A stretch of DNA of 20,000 nucleotides from an uncultured virus (IMG/VR IMGVR_UViG_3300042934_000632). Lineage: Duplodnaviria; Heunggongvirae; Uroviricota; Caudoviricetes. Below the pieces are notes generated by a model. It ran no database searches. It saw only the letters and a program-made list of their open reading frames with translations, and was not told where the DNA came from. This document shows positions 3,516 through 12,502 of the stretch, in pieces. The DNA is taken from the IMG/VR virus record IMGVR_UViG_3300042934_000632; one strand, 5' to 3'. A program made the translations under genes and the position numbers. Position 1 is the first letter of the stretch. Each line of letters starts with the position of its first letter.

Positions 3516-4292
3516 ATGGGTTCTAAGCATTCAGGGCGAGCCTATCGTTTCCTTGTACCTATTGTGATTATTGTAGTTCTATTAATTGCATGGGGCACTA
3601 GAGAACATAGTCTAAGCCAGAAGCACCAGTCTACGATCTCTTCCCTTAAATCAGAACTAAGTAGCAAGGGTCAGGTTATTGAGAATAAGAATATCCTCAT
3701 TCAGCAGAAACAAGCTGAACTTGATCTCCAGTCTTCGCTGCTGGAACAACAGCAAAAGAAGCTAGACAAAAGACAGGCTATTATCGAGCTGAATATTAAG
3801 GAGGCGCAAGTCTCCGATAATAAGATCGAAGCTCAAAAGAAGACTATCAATCAATTGCAAAAGAAGTTGTCTTCGGAACAGTCCAATACCAGTTTGAAAG
3901 CCAAGCCAACCACTGTAAATGCTACTACAGTCTCGGCAAAAGCATCAGGAAGCTTTCAATCTGGATGGACTGCAACTTACTATTCGCTAAGCGTGGCTTC
4001 CACTGGGAAGAGACCAGGTCACCCTGGCTACGGAATCACGGCTAGCGGACGTAAGGTAGTAGACGGTGTTACGATTGCCGTTGATCCACGATACATTCCT
4101 TTGGGAACTTGGATCGAAATTAAAATGCCTAACGGCGAAGTCATCAAACGAAGAGCCGACGATACAGGCTCCGCCATTAAAGGACATAAGCTAGATATTT
4201 ATGTGGCTGGCGTCAGTGACTCATACATCTATCAAGAACTTGGTAAGAAACAAATCTCTATCCGTATTCTCGGAAAGGGAGAACTGAACTAA
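3516..4292 (+). CDS. Membrane-anchored coiled-coil protein with a C-terminal 3D (Asp-Asp-Asp) domain; YocH/Sps-like peptidoglycan lytic transglycosylase
   Basis: N-terminal hydrophobic helix (FLVPIVIIVVLLIAW), long Q/K/E coiled coil, and 3D-domain motifs TATYY, GITASG, IAVDPRYIPLGT and ADDTGSAIKGHKLDIY. AAGGAGG RBS. Confidence 0.92.
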   Translation: MGSKHSGRAYRFLVPIVIIVVLLIAWGTREHSLSQKHQSTISSLKSELSSKGQVIENKNILIQQKQAELDLQSSLLEQQQKKLDKRQAIIELNIKEAQVSDNKIEAQKKTINQLQKKLSSEQSNTSLKAKPTTVNATTVSAKASGSFQSGWTATYYSLSVASTGKRPGHPGYGITASGRKVVDGVTIAVDPRYIPLGTWIEIKMPNGEVIKRRADDTGSAIKGHKLDIYVAGVSDSYIYQELGKKQISIRILGKGELN

Positions 4293-4733: not shown

Positions 4734-5051
4734 ATGTGGTGTAGAATCATGGAGAACACGGAGAATCCTTCTAATATCTTTGAATTTGAAAGCAACAATG
4801 ATTTAATTGTTCATTATACCGTATCGAAAGAAACAAGCACTCCAGTTGTTGAGATTACAAAGTTAGCTACTATTGAAAATAGACTGGAAACATGTGCTAT
4901 TAGTCTTATCAAAAATGAAATTCAGATCCACCTATATACAGGAGAACAGTTATTCAGAGTTTGCGTAGGTGGAATCAGAAGATTCATGTTGTTTGAGCAT
5001 AATGATACAGTTCATGAACGACTAATTATTGATGTAACGAAAGACTTGTAG
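4734..5051 (+). CDS. Hypothetical protein (105 aa)
   Basis: GAGAGGAG RBS; fills the gap between the brfA-like gene and the repeat protein. No family recognised. Confidence 0.65.
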   Translation: MWCRIMENTENPSNIFEFESNNDLIVHYTVSKETSTPVVEITKLATIENRLETCAISLIKNEIQIHLYTGEQLFRVCVGGIRRFMLFEHNDTVHERLIIDVTKDL

Positions 5052-5062
5052 GAGGAGTAGAA

Positions 5063-5593
5063 ATGGCCGTACCAGGCAGCCTGTGGGTTCAAGGGACCCA
5101 GCTTCGTTTTACGAGTCAAAGCGGAGTCAACTTTGCATATGAAGGTACTTATAGTAGCTCGCCTGCTGGAGCTAAACCAGGCAGCTCATGGATCGAAGGC
5201 GATAACTTCGCTTATATCGACCAGTATGGTTCTAAAAGACTCGTTATTAATTATACTGCTACTAATATTCCCGCCGCAGTTGCAGGCAGCTTATGGATTT
5301 ATGGCAATTATCTTTATTGGATTAACACTAATAAGAATAAAACCTACGGACATGGAGATGCAACTCATCAGAATACAAGCTATAATGATGGTAGTTATAA
5401 CGATTATAATAATTCATCAACATCCCATGGTGATTCTACGGTAACTTTCCAAGATTCGCCGACACATGGTAATCATGTACCCTACCATGCGGACTGGCCT
5501 GCTTCACATACGGATAGCTATAACTATCAAGATACACACAACAATAGCTACCATACGGATACTCCACATGCTGATTATCCTATTCAAGTGTAG
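5063..5593 (+). CDS. Repeat protein and putative radical-SAM substrate: three N-terminal A-x-(P/A)-G-S-x-W repeats plus a C-terminal tail with 14 (H/Y/F)-X-(D/N) motifs
   Basis: AGGAGGAG RBS. N-terminal repeats start at residues 2, 37 and 72 (35-aa period). The tail from His97 contains HGD, HQN, YND, YND, YNN, HGD, FQD, HGN, HAD, HTD, YQD, HNN, HTD and HAD. It lies directly upstream of a SPASM radical SAM gene. Confidence 0.85.
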   Translation: MAVPGSLWVQGTQLRFTSQSGVNFAYEGTYSSSPAGAKPGSSWIEGDNFAYIDQYGSKRLVINYTATNIPAAVAGSLWIYGNYLYWINTNKNKTYGHGDATHQNTSYNDGSYNDYNNSSTSHGDSTVTFQDSPTHGNHVPYHADWPASHTDSYNYQDTHNNSYHTDTPHADYPIQV

Positions 5594-5608: not shown

Positions 5609-6829
5609 TTGACAACAGAAGTGAGACCTATGGGTGTTTCGTGTCCTTTAAAATGTGTTTATTGCTATCAAGAACCCCAGAGGGTTGCGGGAAATACTAA
5701 TGCAAAATATGATTTGGCGAAGATGATTCAGGAGATCTCAAAGACTCGAACAAAGAATATTAATTTCTTTGGTGGCGAGATCTTAATGATGCCTATAGAA
5801 GATCTAGAGGTACTGCTGGCTTACGCTCATGTTAAGTTCGGTGGATCAGGTGTTCAAACCAGCGGATCTATCATGAGAGATGAACATATTGAACTCTTCA
5901 AAAAGTACAATGTTCAGCTGGGCTTCTCCATTGACGGTCCTAACGAGCTAAACAGTCTCCGAGTTCCACGCAATCCAAAGACTCCTATTGAAAGTACAAC
6001 GGATAATACAATGAAATATATCAAGCTATCAAAAGAAGCTGGGCTTGATGTAGGCCTTATTATTACCCTTCATAGAGAAAACTCTACTCCAGAACGTATT
6101 CCACGGTTGTTTAATTTTATCAAGTGGTTATGGGATCTTGGTATTCGTAGCGGGAATATTCATACTCTAGAAATTGAATCTACAATGCCGAACCACGACT
6201 TTGTATTGACACAAGAAGAGAACATCTGGGCTTACACCCAACTTGCCGAGTTCTTTAAAACGCTTCCTGACCATGGATGGAATCCTTTCGCAGAGATTAA
6301 AGACTTACTGATGGGTAACGATCAAAAAACTCTTTGTTATTGGCACCGATGCGATCCATTGAATACTCAAGCTGTCCACGGAATCGAAGGTGACGGTGCA
6401 ATCTCTAACTGTGGACGAGCAAATAAAGAAGGAATTGACTGGGTCAAAGCTCCTGATAATTATTATGCAAGATACATCAGCTTCTATCATACGCCTCAAG
6501 ATATGGGTGGCTGTAATGGATGCCGCTTCTGGACAGTATGCGGAGGAAGTTGCCCAGGTGAATCCGATCAGGGGGATTTCAGAAATAAAACAACACATTG
6601 CTCTACTCAGAAAGCAATACTTTCCTATTATGAAAAAGAACTTATTGATGAAGGCAAGCTACCCATTACGACATCGCCTTTGCTTCCTCTTGTTGAACAG
6701 CTCGTTCTTAATGGTCTTGAAAGAGGAGAGAACTTATATCTTAATACTGTTATTTCAATGATTGAAGAGATGAGAACAGAAGTCATCCAACTGGAAGTCG
6801 TAGAGGAGGATATCAATGAAACTACTTGA
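5609..6829 (+). CDS. Radical SAM enzyme with C-terminal SPASM domain (peptide/protein maturase type)
   Basis: CxxxCxxC (CPLKCVYC), FFGGE and SIDGP motifs. The SPASM cysteines are CYWHRC, ISNC, CNGCRFWTVCGGSC and THC. TTG start behind GGGAGGAG. There is no N-terminal RRE/PqqD extension, since the SAM cluster motif starts at residue 12. Confidence 0.95.
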   Translation: MTTEVRPMGVSCPLKCVYCYQEPQRVAGNTNAKYDLAKMIQEISKTRTKNINFFGGEILMMPIEDLEVLLAYAHVKFGGSGVQTSGSIMRDEHIELFKKYNVQLGFSIDGPNELNSLRVPRNPKTPIESTTDNTMKYIKLSKEAGLDVGLIITLHRENSTPERIPRLFNFIKWLWDLGIRSGNIHTLEIESTMPNHDFVLTQEENIWAYTQLAEFFKTLPDHGWNPFAEIKDLLMGNDQKTLCYWHRCDPLNTQAVHGIEGDGAISNCGRANKEGIDWVKAPDNYYARYISFYHTPQDMGGCNGCRFWTVCGGSCPGESDQGDFRNKTTHCSTQKAILSYYEKELIDEGKLPITTSPLLPLVEQLVLNGLERGENLYLNTVISMIEEMRTEVIQLEVVEEDINETT

Positions 6830-7760
6830 TTTTAGTATGCCACCATTTGCAAGAACGGTTTGGGCCTCTCAAGAAATAGAGAAGGAGTGGCGTCCCAAAC
6901 TGGCTTTAGCCTCTCAAGCTTATGAGCGTTTAGAGTATGAAACGGTTGTTCATGGCCTTAGAGCCTGTACAACAGCACATTGTACTCCTGATGATATGGT
7001 TCGTCGGATTCAATTTTATGCAAAGAAAGGTCTTATGTATCATCCCTTACAGCAAGTAGGTGCTTATACAGGGTTCGCTCATACACACCCTCCAGTTATT
7101 CCAGGAAAACCTTGGACCTGGTTCGGTGTTGTAGCTAAAGACCCTCTTGATGCTTACACCTTTGCTGAGGCATCTGCATTGACAGAAGATTCCGCGGGTA
7201 AGGAAATAGATCACTCAACGATTGGCACTCTTCTTGGATACCCTGAATGCTGCCGAAAGTTCTTCACAGATGTATGGGCCGCGGGATATGTTGATCCTGT
7301 ATGGCAACAAGCAGAAAACTGTGAAGGTGAATACGTAGTGAAGAAAGAAGAGCATCTTATTCAGCTAAGCAAGGAGACTCCATGGGAGACTTCACCACTA
7401 CTGAGATACATTGGAGTACGTATCATGCCTCACATTCCATGCTCTCATGATTGTAAACCTTCTCTGGTTATCGCAAGAAGTTGGTTGGATCTTGGTAGAG
7501 AGTTGGCCATACCAGGCATGGAAGAGCTTGAGCAATTTCTTCGGATGCCAGTAGAATGGGATTGCTTGAAGGGGATAGCCTATGTGTCTACTCCAATCTT
7601 CAAGATTGAAACGAATTCCATGACATGTTATCCACGGCATGTTGTTCAAAAGGAAGGAACATTTAGACCAAAGAGTGGAGCAAAAGGACTGAAGTTTCCT
7701 TTTATTCCGCTAGGATCTGATAAGTTTGCTCACCTCTTTGGAGGAGGAAGCGGGTGCTAA
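6816..7760 (+). CDS. Cys/His-rich protein with DUF483-like motifs, probable partner of the radical SAM enzyme
   Basis: Motifs IGTLLGYPECCRKFF and PHIPCSHDC resemble the conserved DUF483 segments LGYPxCC and PCSxxC (recalled, not searched). It overlaps the rSAM gene by 14 nt and has a GAGGAGG RBS. Confidence 0.7.
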   Translation: MKLLDFSMPPFARTVWASQEIEKEWRPKLALASQAYERLEYETVVHGLRACTTAHCTPDDMVRRIQFYAKKGLMYHPLQQVGAYTGFAHTHPPVIPGKPWTWFGVVAKDPLDAYTFAEASALTEDSAGKEIDHSTIGTLLGYPECCRKFFTDVWAAGYVDPVWQQAENCEGEYVVKKEEHLIQLSKETPWETSPLLRYIGVRIMPHIPCSHDCKPSLVIARSWLDLGRELAIPGMEELEQFLRMPVEWDCLKGIAYVSTPIFKIETNSMTCYPRHVVQKEGTFRPKSGAKGLKFPFIPLGSDKFAHLFGGGSGC

Positions 7761-7763
7761 TTC

Positions 7764-8009
7764 ATGTTTAAACAACGTTTATGGGATTGCCTTTTGGCAG
7801 TCCTTTCTTTTATTGTAGCAATAGTATTAATCATTGGTATAGCTTTTCTAGCTGTTTTCTTGTCAGACATCTATTGGTTTAAGATACTTGTAAGTACTGT
7901 TGTTATTCTTATCTTGTCCTTCGTTGTTATTATCGCTCTTTCACTGTTTGTTAACTGGCTGTTTATTGAACCATACAAACATTGGAAAGAAGAAAATAAA
8001 AACAGATAG
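7764..8009 (+). CDS. Small membrane protein with two predicted TM helices
   Basis: Two long hydrophobic stretches (about residues 9-33 and 41-67) and a charged C-terminal tail. GGAGGAGG RBS, 3 nt after the previous stop. Confidence 0.75.
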   Translation: MFKQRLWDCLLAVLSFIVAIVLIIGIAFLAVFLSDIYWFKILVSTVVILILSFVVIIALSLFVNWLFIEPYKHWKEENKNR

Positions 8010-8116: not shown

Positions 8117-8446
8117 ATGTTGATGAGATTGAGTTCGCAAAATGTAAGTAATGCTTTTATGACGTTCATGAAAGAGGCTCCTAAACAATACGAAGCTTGG
8201 CAAGAAATGATTATGAAACTTGACGTAGCAAGCGCACTTGTCAATAAGACAGAGGAGCTTGCCTATATTTCAGTTCTTGCCGCTGTTAGACTAGAAAGCG
8301 GTTTGGAGTTCCATGTAAAACAAGCAAAATCTTTTGGAGCTACGCGGGATGAAATCATTAGTGCAATTCTATTACCACTTCCCGCTGTTGGTAATGTAGC
8401 CATTCAATCTCTACCAATCGCATTACAAGCTTACGATGTGTCATAA
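8117..8446 (+). CDS. Carboxymuconolactone decarboxylase (CMD/AhpD-like) family protein lacking CxxC
   Basis: KTEELAYISVLAAVRLESGLEFHVKQAKSFGATRDEIISAIL matches the CMD family pattern (L..k..ELi.ia......l..H...A...GaT.eEI). The true start may be ATG 8123. Confidence 0.85.
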   Translation: MLMRLSSQNVSNAFMTFMKEAPKQYEAWQEMIMKLDVASALVNKTEELAYISVLAAVRLESGLEFHVKQAKSFGATRDEIISAILLPLPAVGNVAIQSLPIALQAYDVS

Positions 8447-11897: not shown

Positions 11898-12215
11898 ATG
11901 AGTTCAGTCGTAGAAAGAGCAAAGTTGGTTCGGGCAAATGTCTTTGAGATCCTGTCTAAGTTTCCTGAAACAAGAGATAGTGATCGTCGGCTCCTCCTTC
12001 GGTATTGGAACCATGTTGACGGACTCCAATTCGATTTTACATTCCCTGAACAATTCGCAACTACTGGGACATCTGCTGAAAGTATTACCCGCGCCCGTAG
12101 GCAGATTCAGAAAGAAGGTCACTTCGTAGCTTCTCAAGAAGTTTTGGAGCGCCGAGAAGAAAGTCGTAGCGGAATGCGAGAATACTTTATCGGTTCTGAA
12201 GTATCCAGAGCTTAG
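11898..12215 (+). CDS. Hypothetical protein, paralog of 12221..12502
   Basis: Shared motifs PETRDS..LLLRYW...D and AESITRARR. GGGGG RBS. Confidence 0.8.
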   Translation: MSSVVERAKLVRANVFEILSKFPETRDSDRRLLLRYWNHVDGLQFDFTFPEQFATTGTSAESITRARRQIQKEGHFVASQEVLERREESRSGMREYFIGSEVSRA

Positions 12216-12220
12216 TCTTT

Positions 12221-12502
12221 ATGGCTGAGCAAGAGTTCAAAAGGGCAGATCAAAAAGCTGCCTACCTGATGGACGCAGCCCCGCAAACAAGACAGGACCA
12301 TTTGCTACTCATCCTAATGTACTGGCAGATATTCGACAATATTGATTTGCCTGACACAGTGGTAAAAGAAATTATAGAGAAAGCCACTGCACCCGAGACC
12401 ATTACACGTTCTAGGAGAAAGGTCACGGAAAAGTTAAGGTACAAACAATTGTTTGAACTTCAAAGGATGATAAGGGAACAGGTACAGGAAGAGGCTCCTT
12501 GA
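12221..12502 (+). CDS. Hypothetical protein, paralog of 11898..12215
   Basis: Shared motifs PQTRQD..LILMYW...D and PETITRSRR. Confidence 0.8.
   Translation: MAEQEFKRADQKAAYLMDAAPQTRQDHLLLILMYWQIFDNIDLPDTVVKEIIEKATAPETITRSRRKVTEKLRYKQLFELQRMIREQVQEEAP

Follow-up and report, generated by a model that had tools for sequence, protein, structure and literature searches.

A viral triple-repeat domain with an aromatic-x-Asp/Asn tail as the candidate protein substrate of a radical SAM/SPASM enzyme

This report concerns a small gene cassette in a 20,000-nucleotide stretch of DNA (the window) from an uncultured virus of the Caudoviricetes (IMG/VR record IMGVR_UViG_3300042934_000632); the window comes from a virus record of 251,543 bp that is rated complete. 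The first gene of the cassette encodes P0001, a protein of 176 amino acids (aa) in which a triple-repeat domain is followed by a tail of aromatic-x-Asp/Asn triads, and the gene directly behind it encodes a radical S-adenosylmethionine (SAM)/SPASM enzyme. We would class the system as radical SAM/SPASM maturation in which the candidate protein substrate is unusual and rests on a new family of viral domains. Our preferred explanation, to which we assign a probability of about 0.5, is that P0001 is an enzyme-modified particle or adhesion protein that consists of two parts and stays uncleaved, and is not a classical leader-plus-core peptide. The elements on which this explanation is built are the following.

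5063 to 5593, plus strand: P0001, the candidate substrate open reading frame (ORF), 176 aa, with a predicted triple-repeat beta domain, an aromatic-x-Asp/Asn tail and a conserved C-terminal strand
5063 to 5350, plus strand: N-terminal triple-repeat domain, residues 1-96, with units starting at residues 2, 37 and 72
5351 to 5575, plus strand: triad tail, residues 97-171, with 14 aromatic-x-[Asp/Asn] triads (9 His, 4 Tyr, 1 Phe)
5576 to 5590, plus strand: C-terminal element YPIQV, residues 172-176, a predicted strand returning to the N-terminal domain
5609 to 6829, plus strand: radical SAM/SPASM enzyme, 406 aa, TTG start, 16 bases 3' of the P0001 stop
6816 to 7760, plus strand: DUF483-like Cys-rich protein, 314 aa, whose start overlaps the radical SAM stop by 14 bases

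The triple repeat of P0001

The initial annotation had quoted three similar stretches at residues 2, 37 and 72, at an exact period of 35 aa, and all three match the translation exactly as written. When residues 1-106 were compared with themselves using BLOSUM62, offset 35 scored 47 and the runner-up, offset 65, scored -16. The best offset in 2000 shuffled sequences averaged -10.3 (standard deviation 8.3, maximum 30), and none of the 2000 reached 47. Identity between units is 8-9 of 35 residues (23-26%), with 13-14 positives of 35, and because the units are so weakly identical the internal triplication is judged to be old, not recent.

The conserved core is the first ~20 residues of each unit, for which the family consensus is GS[IL]W[VI]EG..LHYID..G.ER. 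At least 90% of the 146 alignment rows keep residues G5, W8, G28, G40, W43, G75 and W78. P0001 carries the features that define the family, namely three tandem units of ~35 aa with the core GS[IL]W[VI]EG..L.[YW]ID..G. The interval 5063-5350 spans the entire confidently folded part of the protein, and the last ~10 residues of the formal third unit (from His97) are already tail.

Predicted structure of the domain, tail and C-terminus

We predicted the structure of P0001 with AlphaFold2, using the 146-row alignment, and assigned strands with DSSP. The block-mean predicted local distance difference test (pLDDT) is 92-98 for residues 1-90 and 86 for residues 91-100, and 11 strands fall within residues 7-96, distributed 4+4+3 over the three units. 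Residues 1-96 are confidently predicted to be an autonomous beta domain. At the level of a prediction (pLDDT 92-98, all-beta), this agrees with the earlier proposal that P0001 begins with a folded beta-rich domain and not with a short, unstructured leader.

The tail has a pLDDT of 42-66 and is predicted to be disordered when unmodified. It holds 14 [HYF]-x-[DN] triads in 81 residues, and 9 of the 10 His residues lie in H-x-[DN]; it is the presumed site of modification by the radical SAM enzyme. Two positions after His, the 96 family proteins compared have Asp in 73% and Asn in 10% of cases, and their triads are spaced 4-5 residues apart.

The last block (residues 171-176) returns to a pLDDT of 93, with strand at residues 172 and 174-175. 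Since this block is a confident strand while all other strands lie within residues 7-96, YPIQV probably docks onto the domain and supplies unit 3 with the fourth strand that it lacks; the tail would then be a closed loop. Pro173 is kept in 102 of 106 aligned rows, with a hydrophobic residue next to it, and a related D/N/Q-x-P...[IVL] ending is present in 55 of 96 tailed proteins.

The initial annotation had also likened the repeats to modules of trimeric fibres, spikes or Mtd-like proteins. That likeness was not borne out, as no such fold stood out in Foldseek, BFVD or the full structure scans. Foldseek of the domain model against the PDB gave nothing at E <= 0.001, its weak rows being hairpin repeats (choline-binding and CROP, E 0.25-0.9), and the phiMa orthologue was the sole return from BFVD. 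Fibre and spike entries reached a Z of only 2.1-2.2 over 31-35 residues. The beta-prism II lectins were the sole fold to recur at the top of two structure searches (a full VIA-align scan and a second look), at ranks 1-3 and 17 in one and at ranks 1 and 3 in the other. The LLPA bacteriocin (4gc1_A, 3m7h_A) aligned over 86-91 residues with Z of 4.2, 3.6 and 3.4 and root-mean-square deviation (rmsd) of 3.8-4.5, the Marasmius lectin had a Z of 2.7 and the Hippeastrum agglutinin (HHA, 8a9m_A) a Z of 2.0. Beta-prism II (monocot mannose-binding) lectins are, like the P0001 domain, ~100 residues long and built from three beta units of ~35 aa, which makes a lectin-like match plausible; it is nevertheless a weak one, with scores within the range of chance arrangements. 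The two also differ in that Z is low, no Foldseek match reaches E <= 0.001 and the sugar motif is absent here.

An atlas structure search returned a 485-aa viral cluster with a template modelling (TM) score of 0.71, and a search of the atlas by protein features yielded no usable match. A homotrimer prediction for three copies of full-length P0001, run without controls, scored 0.00 and has no bearing either way on trimerisation. Searching the PDB by sequence profile with alignment A2 gave nothing, and with alignment A4 it gave 8fjf_A (E 0.03) and 9hz8_M (E 0.077), both insignificant. The latter chain, from the capsid of Agrobacterium phage 7-7-1, is a 220-aa 'Structural protein' in which the stretch GYIWTDGEGYNIVDSNGD... 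resembles one or two repeat units.

An unnamed, mainly viral domain family

As defined here by profiles A2/A4, the repeat domain represents a large, unnamed and mainly viral family. A profile search among 1.84 billion proteins found 460 representative proteins at E <= 1e-3, including 165 at E <= 1e-10. The best 150 comprise 93 proteins with at least five H-x-[DN] triads (up to 40), 8 with Cys-rich tails, 17 of at most 125 aa and 32 with other architectures. The partner domains seen among these other architectures are PKD, He_PIG, CBM96 and Laminin_G_3, which are surface or glycan-binding types. In two tailed members that are longer relatives of P0001 (P0089 and P0125), one region matches the 'virion structural protein' family phrog_10356 (E 2e-20 and 7e-19).

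The relatives of P0001 itself include P0004, which is 65% identical, and the orthologues in Thermus phages phiMa (gp29) and Cumys (gp13), which align with 97% of the query at 30% identity (E 7e-8). Single-sequence searches with P0001 recovered 2 near relatives and none among longer proteins, and viral-contig searches with P0001, the DUF483 protein or alignment A2 returned zero loci. A tblastn search with a consensus-like domain against 50,697 phage records found phiMa and Cumys only, and megablast of the cassette against the same records gave zero matches. A scan of genome contigs with A4 returned 5 loci, of which 4 are short single-unit matches.

It should also be noted that a second class of candidate substrates combines the repeat domain with a tail containing 10-21 Cys residues (P0006, P0009, P0011, P0013, P0032, P0062, P0066, P0129 and L021).

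The tail, not the domain, is linked to the enzyme

Scanning IMG/VR with A4, a curated 8-row alignment of the domain, gave 73 viral loci, of which 50 are tailed and 23 tail-less. A radical SAM homologue lies directly downstream in all 48 tailed loci that retain downstream DNA. A DUF483 homologue was found in 43 of the 50 tailed loci; of the seven loci without one, six are cut contigs and L061 is a real miss. No DUF483 homologue was found in the 23 tail-less loci, and radical SAM was found there only in L021, where it is a different enzyme. This locus encodes a protein with a Cys-rich tail and a phrog_1802 radical SAM enzyme (L021:8001-8714, L021:9075-10331), without DUF483. In tail-less loci the domain is usually C-terminal in proteins of 276-484 aa encoded in tail-tip regions.

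Thermus phage phiLo presents another arrangement. Its 482-aa enzyme (L004:4427-5875, MH673673), 43% identical to the window enzyme, ends in its own His-x-Asp/Asn chain, and both the repeat domain and a separate substrate gene are missing; two IS605 OrfB fragments lie just upstream. As phiLo fuses the H-x-D chain to an enzyme without the domain, the enzyme appears not to need the repeat domain, which argues against a leader role. Taken with the contrast between tailed and tail-less loci, the phiLo fusion indicates that it is the tail rather than the domain that is tied to the enzyme, and that the domain has an independent existence.

The annotated phiMa enzyme (phiMa_28, L001:7152-8288) is shorter than that of Cumys (Cumys_12, L002:7026-8276), as its annotated start omits ~40 N-terminal residues. 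The phiMa start is probably mis-called, because the window, Cumys and phiLo enzymes hold CX3CX2C within the omitted stretch.

The radical SAM/SPASM enzyme and its DUF483-like partner

The enzyme matches Pfam Radical_SAM at 7.5e-16 (59.2 bits against a cut-off of 29.5) and also phrog_1802. Both Cys motifs expected of a radical SAM/SPASM maturase are present, CX3CX2C as CPLKCVYC at residues 12-19 and the SPASM motif CX2CX5CX3C as CNGCRFWTVCGGSC at residues 302-315. With CX3CX2C beginning at residue 12 there is no room for a recognition domain, and on its sequence the enzyme is without an N-terminal leader-recognition domain. It is 40-43% identical to the Thermus phage enzymes. Among curated NCBIfam models the best scores went to cyclophane-forming and other peptide maturases, and each stayed far under its cut-off: AmcB (cyclophane-forming, the best) scored 72.5 bits against 425, YhhB 50 against 445, XyeB 38.8 against 450 and GrrM/OscB 38.7 against 310.

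The third protein scores 19.8 bits against PF04467, below the gathering cut-off of 25, and its homologues in L059 (31.7), L019 (30.1) and L062 (26.8) pass. It is 41-47% identical to the phiMa, Cumys and phiLo proteins. Four Cys residues (C145, C146, C209 and C213) are invariant in 32 sequences, within the shared motifs GYPxCC and HLPCSxxC. Its structural model has a pLDDT of 91.5 and matched no solved fold clearly; the best structural match is 2guk_B, a protein of unknown function (Z 6.1), followed by the NleE methyltransferase (Z 4.6). We considered whether this partner could be a protease and rejected the idea, as the model gave no protease-like structural match.

In relatives the DUF483 protein is mostly 420-490 aa long and fused to a C-terminal class I SAM methyltransferase, as found in all seven long forms tested (L012:10047-11510, L006:12684-14057, L028:9905-11299, L049:10189-11598, L059:8601-10031, L062:9363-10817 and L075:10466-11758). 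The 314-aa form of the window and the Thermus forms are without the methyltransferase domain, and L019 has a separate methyltransferase gene upstream.

Comparison with known systems

The cassette closely resembles the 'rSAM module' of Thermus phages Cumys and phiMa. The available portion of the paper describing it lists a radical SAM protein, a DUF483 protein and an unknown protein, conserved in phages and prophages, and tentatively suggests a role in DNA modification (Viruses 2024;16:1410, PMC11437467, 10.1101/2024.08.14.607894). The terms 'histidine', 'tail fiber' and 'mass spectrometry' are absent from its main text, which holds no proteomics of phiMa or Cumys (PMC11437467). We find the same three genes in identical order, with 30% identity for the substrate, 40% for the enzyme and 46-47% for the DUF483 protein. 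The Thermus substrates share the N-terminal triple repeat and a similar C-terminal end, but they are twice as long, carry 53-54 H-x-[DN] triads compared to 9 in P0001, and are encoded directly 3' of baseplate and tail-collar genes.

Triceptide (three-residue cyclophane) systems offer a chemical parallel. According to the part of the report available, HaaB and HtkB are triceptide maturases that act on His motifs, HtkB linking His-C2 to Lys-C-beta (RSC Chem Biol 2024, PMC11499958). As far as that text describes them, these systems likewise pair a SPASM-type radical SAM enzyme with an adjacent substrate containing repeated aromatic-x-x triads that include His. The present system differs in being viral, in having Asp or Asn as the third residue, in the 96-aa predicted folded domain on the substrate and in NCBIfam scores far under cut-off. 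P0001 thus has the repeated aromatic-x-x triads of a triceptide substrate, but the enzyme does not reach the curated score of a cyclophane family.

The His-Xaa-Ser system consists of HxsA-D. It too has many triads of His, any residue and a small residue, next to a radical SAM/SPASM maturase. In contrast to that system, the cassette has one radical SAM gene and not two, Asp or Asn in place of Ser at the third position, and a DUF483 partner, and its enzyme scores 36.1 against the HxsB family TIGR03978 (cut-off 370).

Literature searches on radical SAM with phage tail fibre or cyclophane, on DUF483 and on AmcB returned no paper whose available text deals with this domain or with an enzyme-modified fibre protein.

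Many relatives are encoded in tail modules

We surveyed up to four upstream ORFs in 31 of the 39 non-redundant tailed loci, using PHROG. Tail, baseplate or virion-structural matches lie upstream in 19 of these 31 loci. The phiMa and Cumys orthologues are situated 3' of baseplate and 'tail collar fiber' genes and 5' of lysis and terminase genes. In many relatives a gene for a fibre-type N-terminus directly precedes the substrate gene, and the two are translationally coupled.

Many of these upstream pieces belong to one BLASTP cluster, here called the anchor family. Its 33 sequences are the immediate upstream ORF in 25 tailed loci and the N-terminal extensions in five fused-form loci, so that it covers 30 of the 50 tailed loci (one fused locus supplies both pieces). 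The cluster also takes in the N-terminal extension of P0029 and the ORF upstream in L021, the latter of which resembles the N-terminus of a tail-fibre family (phrog_8469, E 3.6e-18). Weaker matches, of tail-fibre, tail-spike or structural type, were returned for three more members. Fused forms, in which anchor, domain and tail make up one chain, are P0029, L032, L033, L041 and L061. Among the tail-less members, minor-tail, tail or tape-measure genes lie upstream in 8 of 21 loci and replication-type upstream neighbours in 0 of 21; the sole other annotated kind of flanking gene is a divergently transcribed regulator downstream in L058.

Cumys gp14 (Cumys_14, L002:5683-5976, 98 aa) ends in VVLPVGTDRWAP, which resembles RIVVPVGTDKFDG before the repeat domain of the fused protein P0029 (N-terminal extension, residues 1-105). 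From these ends, the anchor piece seems to have been split off as a gene of its own in the Thermus phages. BLASTP at 1e-3 did not connect Cumys gp14 with P0029 residues 1-105.

Proposed function of P0001

In the explanation that we favour, residues 1-96 would form a three-unit beta domain with pseudo-threefold symmetry, possibly lectin-like. Residues 97-171 would be a flexible aromatic-x-Asp/Asn chain that is modified by the co-translated radical SAM/SPASM enzyme, with the DUF483 protein helping as a putative metal-binding partner. The likeliest reaction may be a side-chain crosslink inside each triad, of the cyclophane type, as in the His-containing triceptides of the available report (PMC11499958). 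The last five residues would fold back as a strand on the beta domain, so that the modified chain becomes a closed, displayed loop that is stiffened, protease-resistant and possibly metal-binding. The product most likely stays whole and would work at the particle surface as a fibre-tip or adhesion/decoration protein, a location that is conditional above all in this phage.

The gp38 protein of T2/S16-type phages, a small adhesin at the tip of the long tail fibre, serves us as a working analogy. A small protein encoded just behind a fibre gene could similarly attach to the fibre end and present repetitive host-contact loops. To our knowledge, no enzymatic maturation of gp38 has been described.

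A more specific version of the idea places a lectin-like triple-repeat knob at the fibre tip of many tailed phages, with a closed, metal-binding His-x-Asp loop crosslinked by radical SAM chemistry. We offer this as a tentative possibility. If true, such knobs would represent a novel type of receptor-binding protein, armoured by an enzyme, in which peptide-antibiotic chemistry helps to build virus particles, and the domain would be a portable display scaffold for at least two kinds of modified tail (His-x-Asp and Cys-rich).

Several observations weigh against P0001 being a modified particle protein. Within the window, the cassette is flanked by genes for a dUTPase, a primase, a 3D-domain protein, a dNMP kinase, a resolvase, a thymidine kinase and a helicase; Pfam and PHROG scans of these 20 kb recognised no structural gene, and P0001 is not part of a tail or baseplate module there. 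It begins directly with the repeat, and the ORF upstream of it lies outside the anchor family. P0001 itself has zero Pfam, NCBIfam or PHROG matches, and so belongs to no recognised tail or virion family. Among the 31 surveyed loci, 9 have uninformative neighbours and 3 (L019, L062 and L068) have clearly non-structural ones; L019, the closest relative (enzyme 53% identical), sits beside a hydrolase and a methyltransferase. Most members of the anchor cluster lack a PHROG match in their own right at 1e-5. Cargo genes, too, are classically found in the slot behind tail-fibre genes, and synteny alone is no proof of a structural role. No solved fibre, spike or adhesin fold matched the domain in the structure searches described above; the best lectin match (4gc1_A, Z 4.2, 86 residues aligned, rmsd 3.8) is weak, and the mannose-binding motif QxDxNxVxY occurs in none of the 155 stored proteins, P0001 included. 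With the enzyme far below every curated cut-off, cyclophane chemistry is a guess. Finally, one domain heads two types of tail, each beside a radical SAM enzyme, and a shared leader family would look alike.

The initial annotation had suggested that P0001 may be a virion appendage or decoration. This stands in part: the folded domain and, at the level of the family, the link to the tail region (19 of 31 and 30 of 50 loci) agree with it, and the context in its own phage, which has no anchor gene, does not. The tail-region link in relatives appears fairly strong; the genome context of P0001 does not support a structural role.

Alternative explanations

P0001 could instead be the precursor of a peptide that is made by the ribosome and modified after translation (RiPP), with a large leader. 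The repeat domain would then be a folded leader or scaffold, and the tail would be cut off as small crosslinked peptides acting on the host or on competitors. With its 14 aromatic-x-[DN] triads the tail does resemble a multi-core triceptide substrate, and the best curated matches of the enzyme are peptide maturases, though far below cut-off. That one domain stands in front of both His-x-Asp and Cys-rich tails, two chemistries with a phrog_1802 enzyme alongside in each case, is typical of shared leader families, folded leaders derived from proteins are known (the Nif11 and nitrile-hydratase types), and the genes lie among early-type genes in this phage. Against these points, no protease family was found in the cassette by Pfam, NCBIfam and PHROG scans, in the DUF483 model or in the relatives examined, and no transporter was found in the cassette or in those relatives. 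Tail and enzyme are often missing where the domain occurs (23 of 73 loci), phiLo joins the H-x-D chain to an enzyme without the domain, and the enzyme appears to have no N-terminal recognition domain. The conserved Pro-hydrophobic element at the C-terminus, with its predicted docking, favours an intact product, and relatives show tail-module synteny and fusions to fibre-type N-termini. We therefore consider a cleaved precursor unlikely.

Somewhat less likely again is an intracellular, non-virion protein, that is, an enzyme-modified, His/Asp-rich factor of early infection, metal-binding or active in host takeover, with a beta domain that would attach to a target in the host. Chains rich in His and Asp are typical ligands of metals, and the replication and nucleotide-metabolism neighbours in this phage would suit such a role, as would the non-structural neighbours in L019, L062 and L068. 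No signal peptide or anchor was found in P0001, nor a tail PHROG match. However, most relatives are located in tail modules or fused to fibre-type N-termini, and the partner domains found elsewhere in the family are of extracellular types. In addition, gene order is scattered in jumbo and T4-like genomes, which makes neighbourhood weak evidence in general.

A helper of tail-fibre folding or assembly, absent from the particle or kept only at the tip like an accessory adhesin, is improbable: relatives do encode the substrate right after, and coupled to, a fibre-type N-terminal gene, a position that is classic for fibre chaperones and tip adhesins, but the fused forms (P0029, L032, L033, L041 and L061) fit a structural subunit better, and dedicated radical SAM maturation would seem costly for a transient helper.

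Significance of a possible modified particle protein

Radical SAM/SPASM maturases are known mainly for small bioactive peptides, and here the front half of the candidate substrate is a widespread viral domain that occurs on proteins of the tail region. Should the product of P0001 and its relatives be part of the particle, phages would be hardening or functionalising the parts that contact the host, which bears on host range, particle stability and protein engineering. The best-studied relatives infect Thermus at high temperature, a setting relevant to particle stability. Independently of its location, an unnamed domain family with hundreds of representative clusters is now defined, and the three-gene 'rSAM module', previously tied tentatively to DNA modification, is supplied with a testable substrate.

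Genes and minor features around the cassette

Three further features adjoin the cassette.

5050 to 5057, plus strand: Shine-Dalgarno-like AGGAGGAG, 5 bases 5' of the P0001 ATG; strong, as read from the sequence
4734 to 5051, plus strand: 105-aa ORF directly upstream of P0001, in the slot that in relatives often holds a gene resembling a tail-fibre N-terminus
7764 to 8009, plus strand: hydrophobic protein, 81 aa, whose start lies 4 bases past the DUF483 gene; its membership of the cassette is uncertain

All family matches of the 81-aa protein are sub-threshold in Pfam, NCBIfam and PHROG, and the ORF at 4734-5051 has no match in any of the three. We considered this ORF as the missing anchor and rejected it, since BLASTP gave no link to the anchor cluster, the hidden Markov model (HMM) of the cluster was silent and the ORF is unlike phiMa gp30.

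Across the remaining genome there is no second copy of the domain. The anchor-cluster HMM gave a single marginal match in the whole genome, to an ORF at 86266-87315 on the minus strand (E 1.3e-3), 53 kb away. This ORF, outside the window, is a Gly/Ser/Thr-rich frame of 350 aa with the C-terminal end LVIPVGNDMYAT, which resembles the ..PVG.D.. junction motif that precedes the repeat domain in fused relatives and closes Cumys gp14.

Two ORFs (~770 bases) upstream of the cassette, positions 3516-4292 (plus strand) encode a cell-wall-directed protein of 258 aa. It has a hydrophobic segment at the N-terminus, then a long coiled-coil-like stretch rich in Gln and Lys, and a 3D domain at the C-terminus (PF06725, 8.7e-12; phrog_6631). 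Shortly 3' of the cassette, positions 8117-8446 (plus strand) encode a 109-aa protein of the carboxymuconolactone decarboxylase (CMD/AhpD-like) family (PF02627, 8.1e-10). Further downstream, two adjacent small ORFs at 11898-12215 and 12221-12502 (plus strand; 105 and 93 aa) both match phrog_24961, an apparent tandem duplication.

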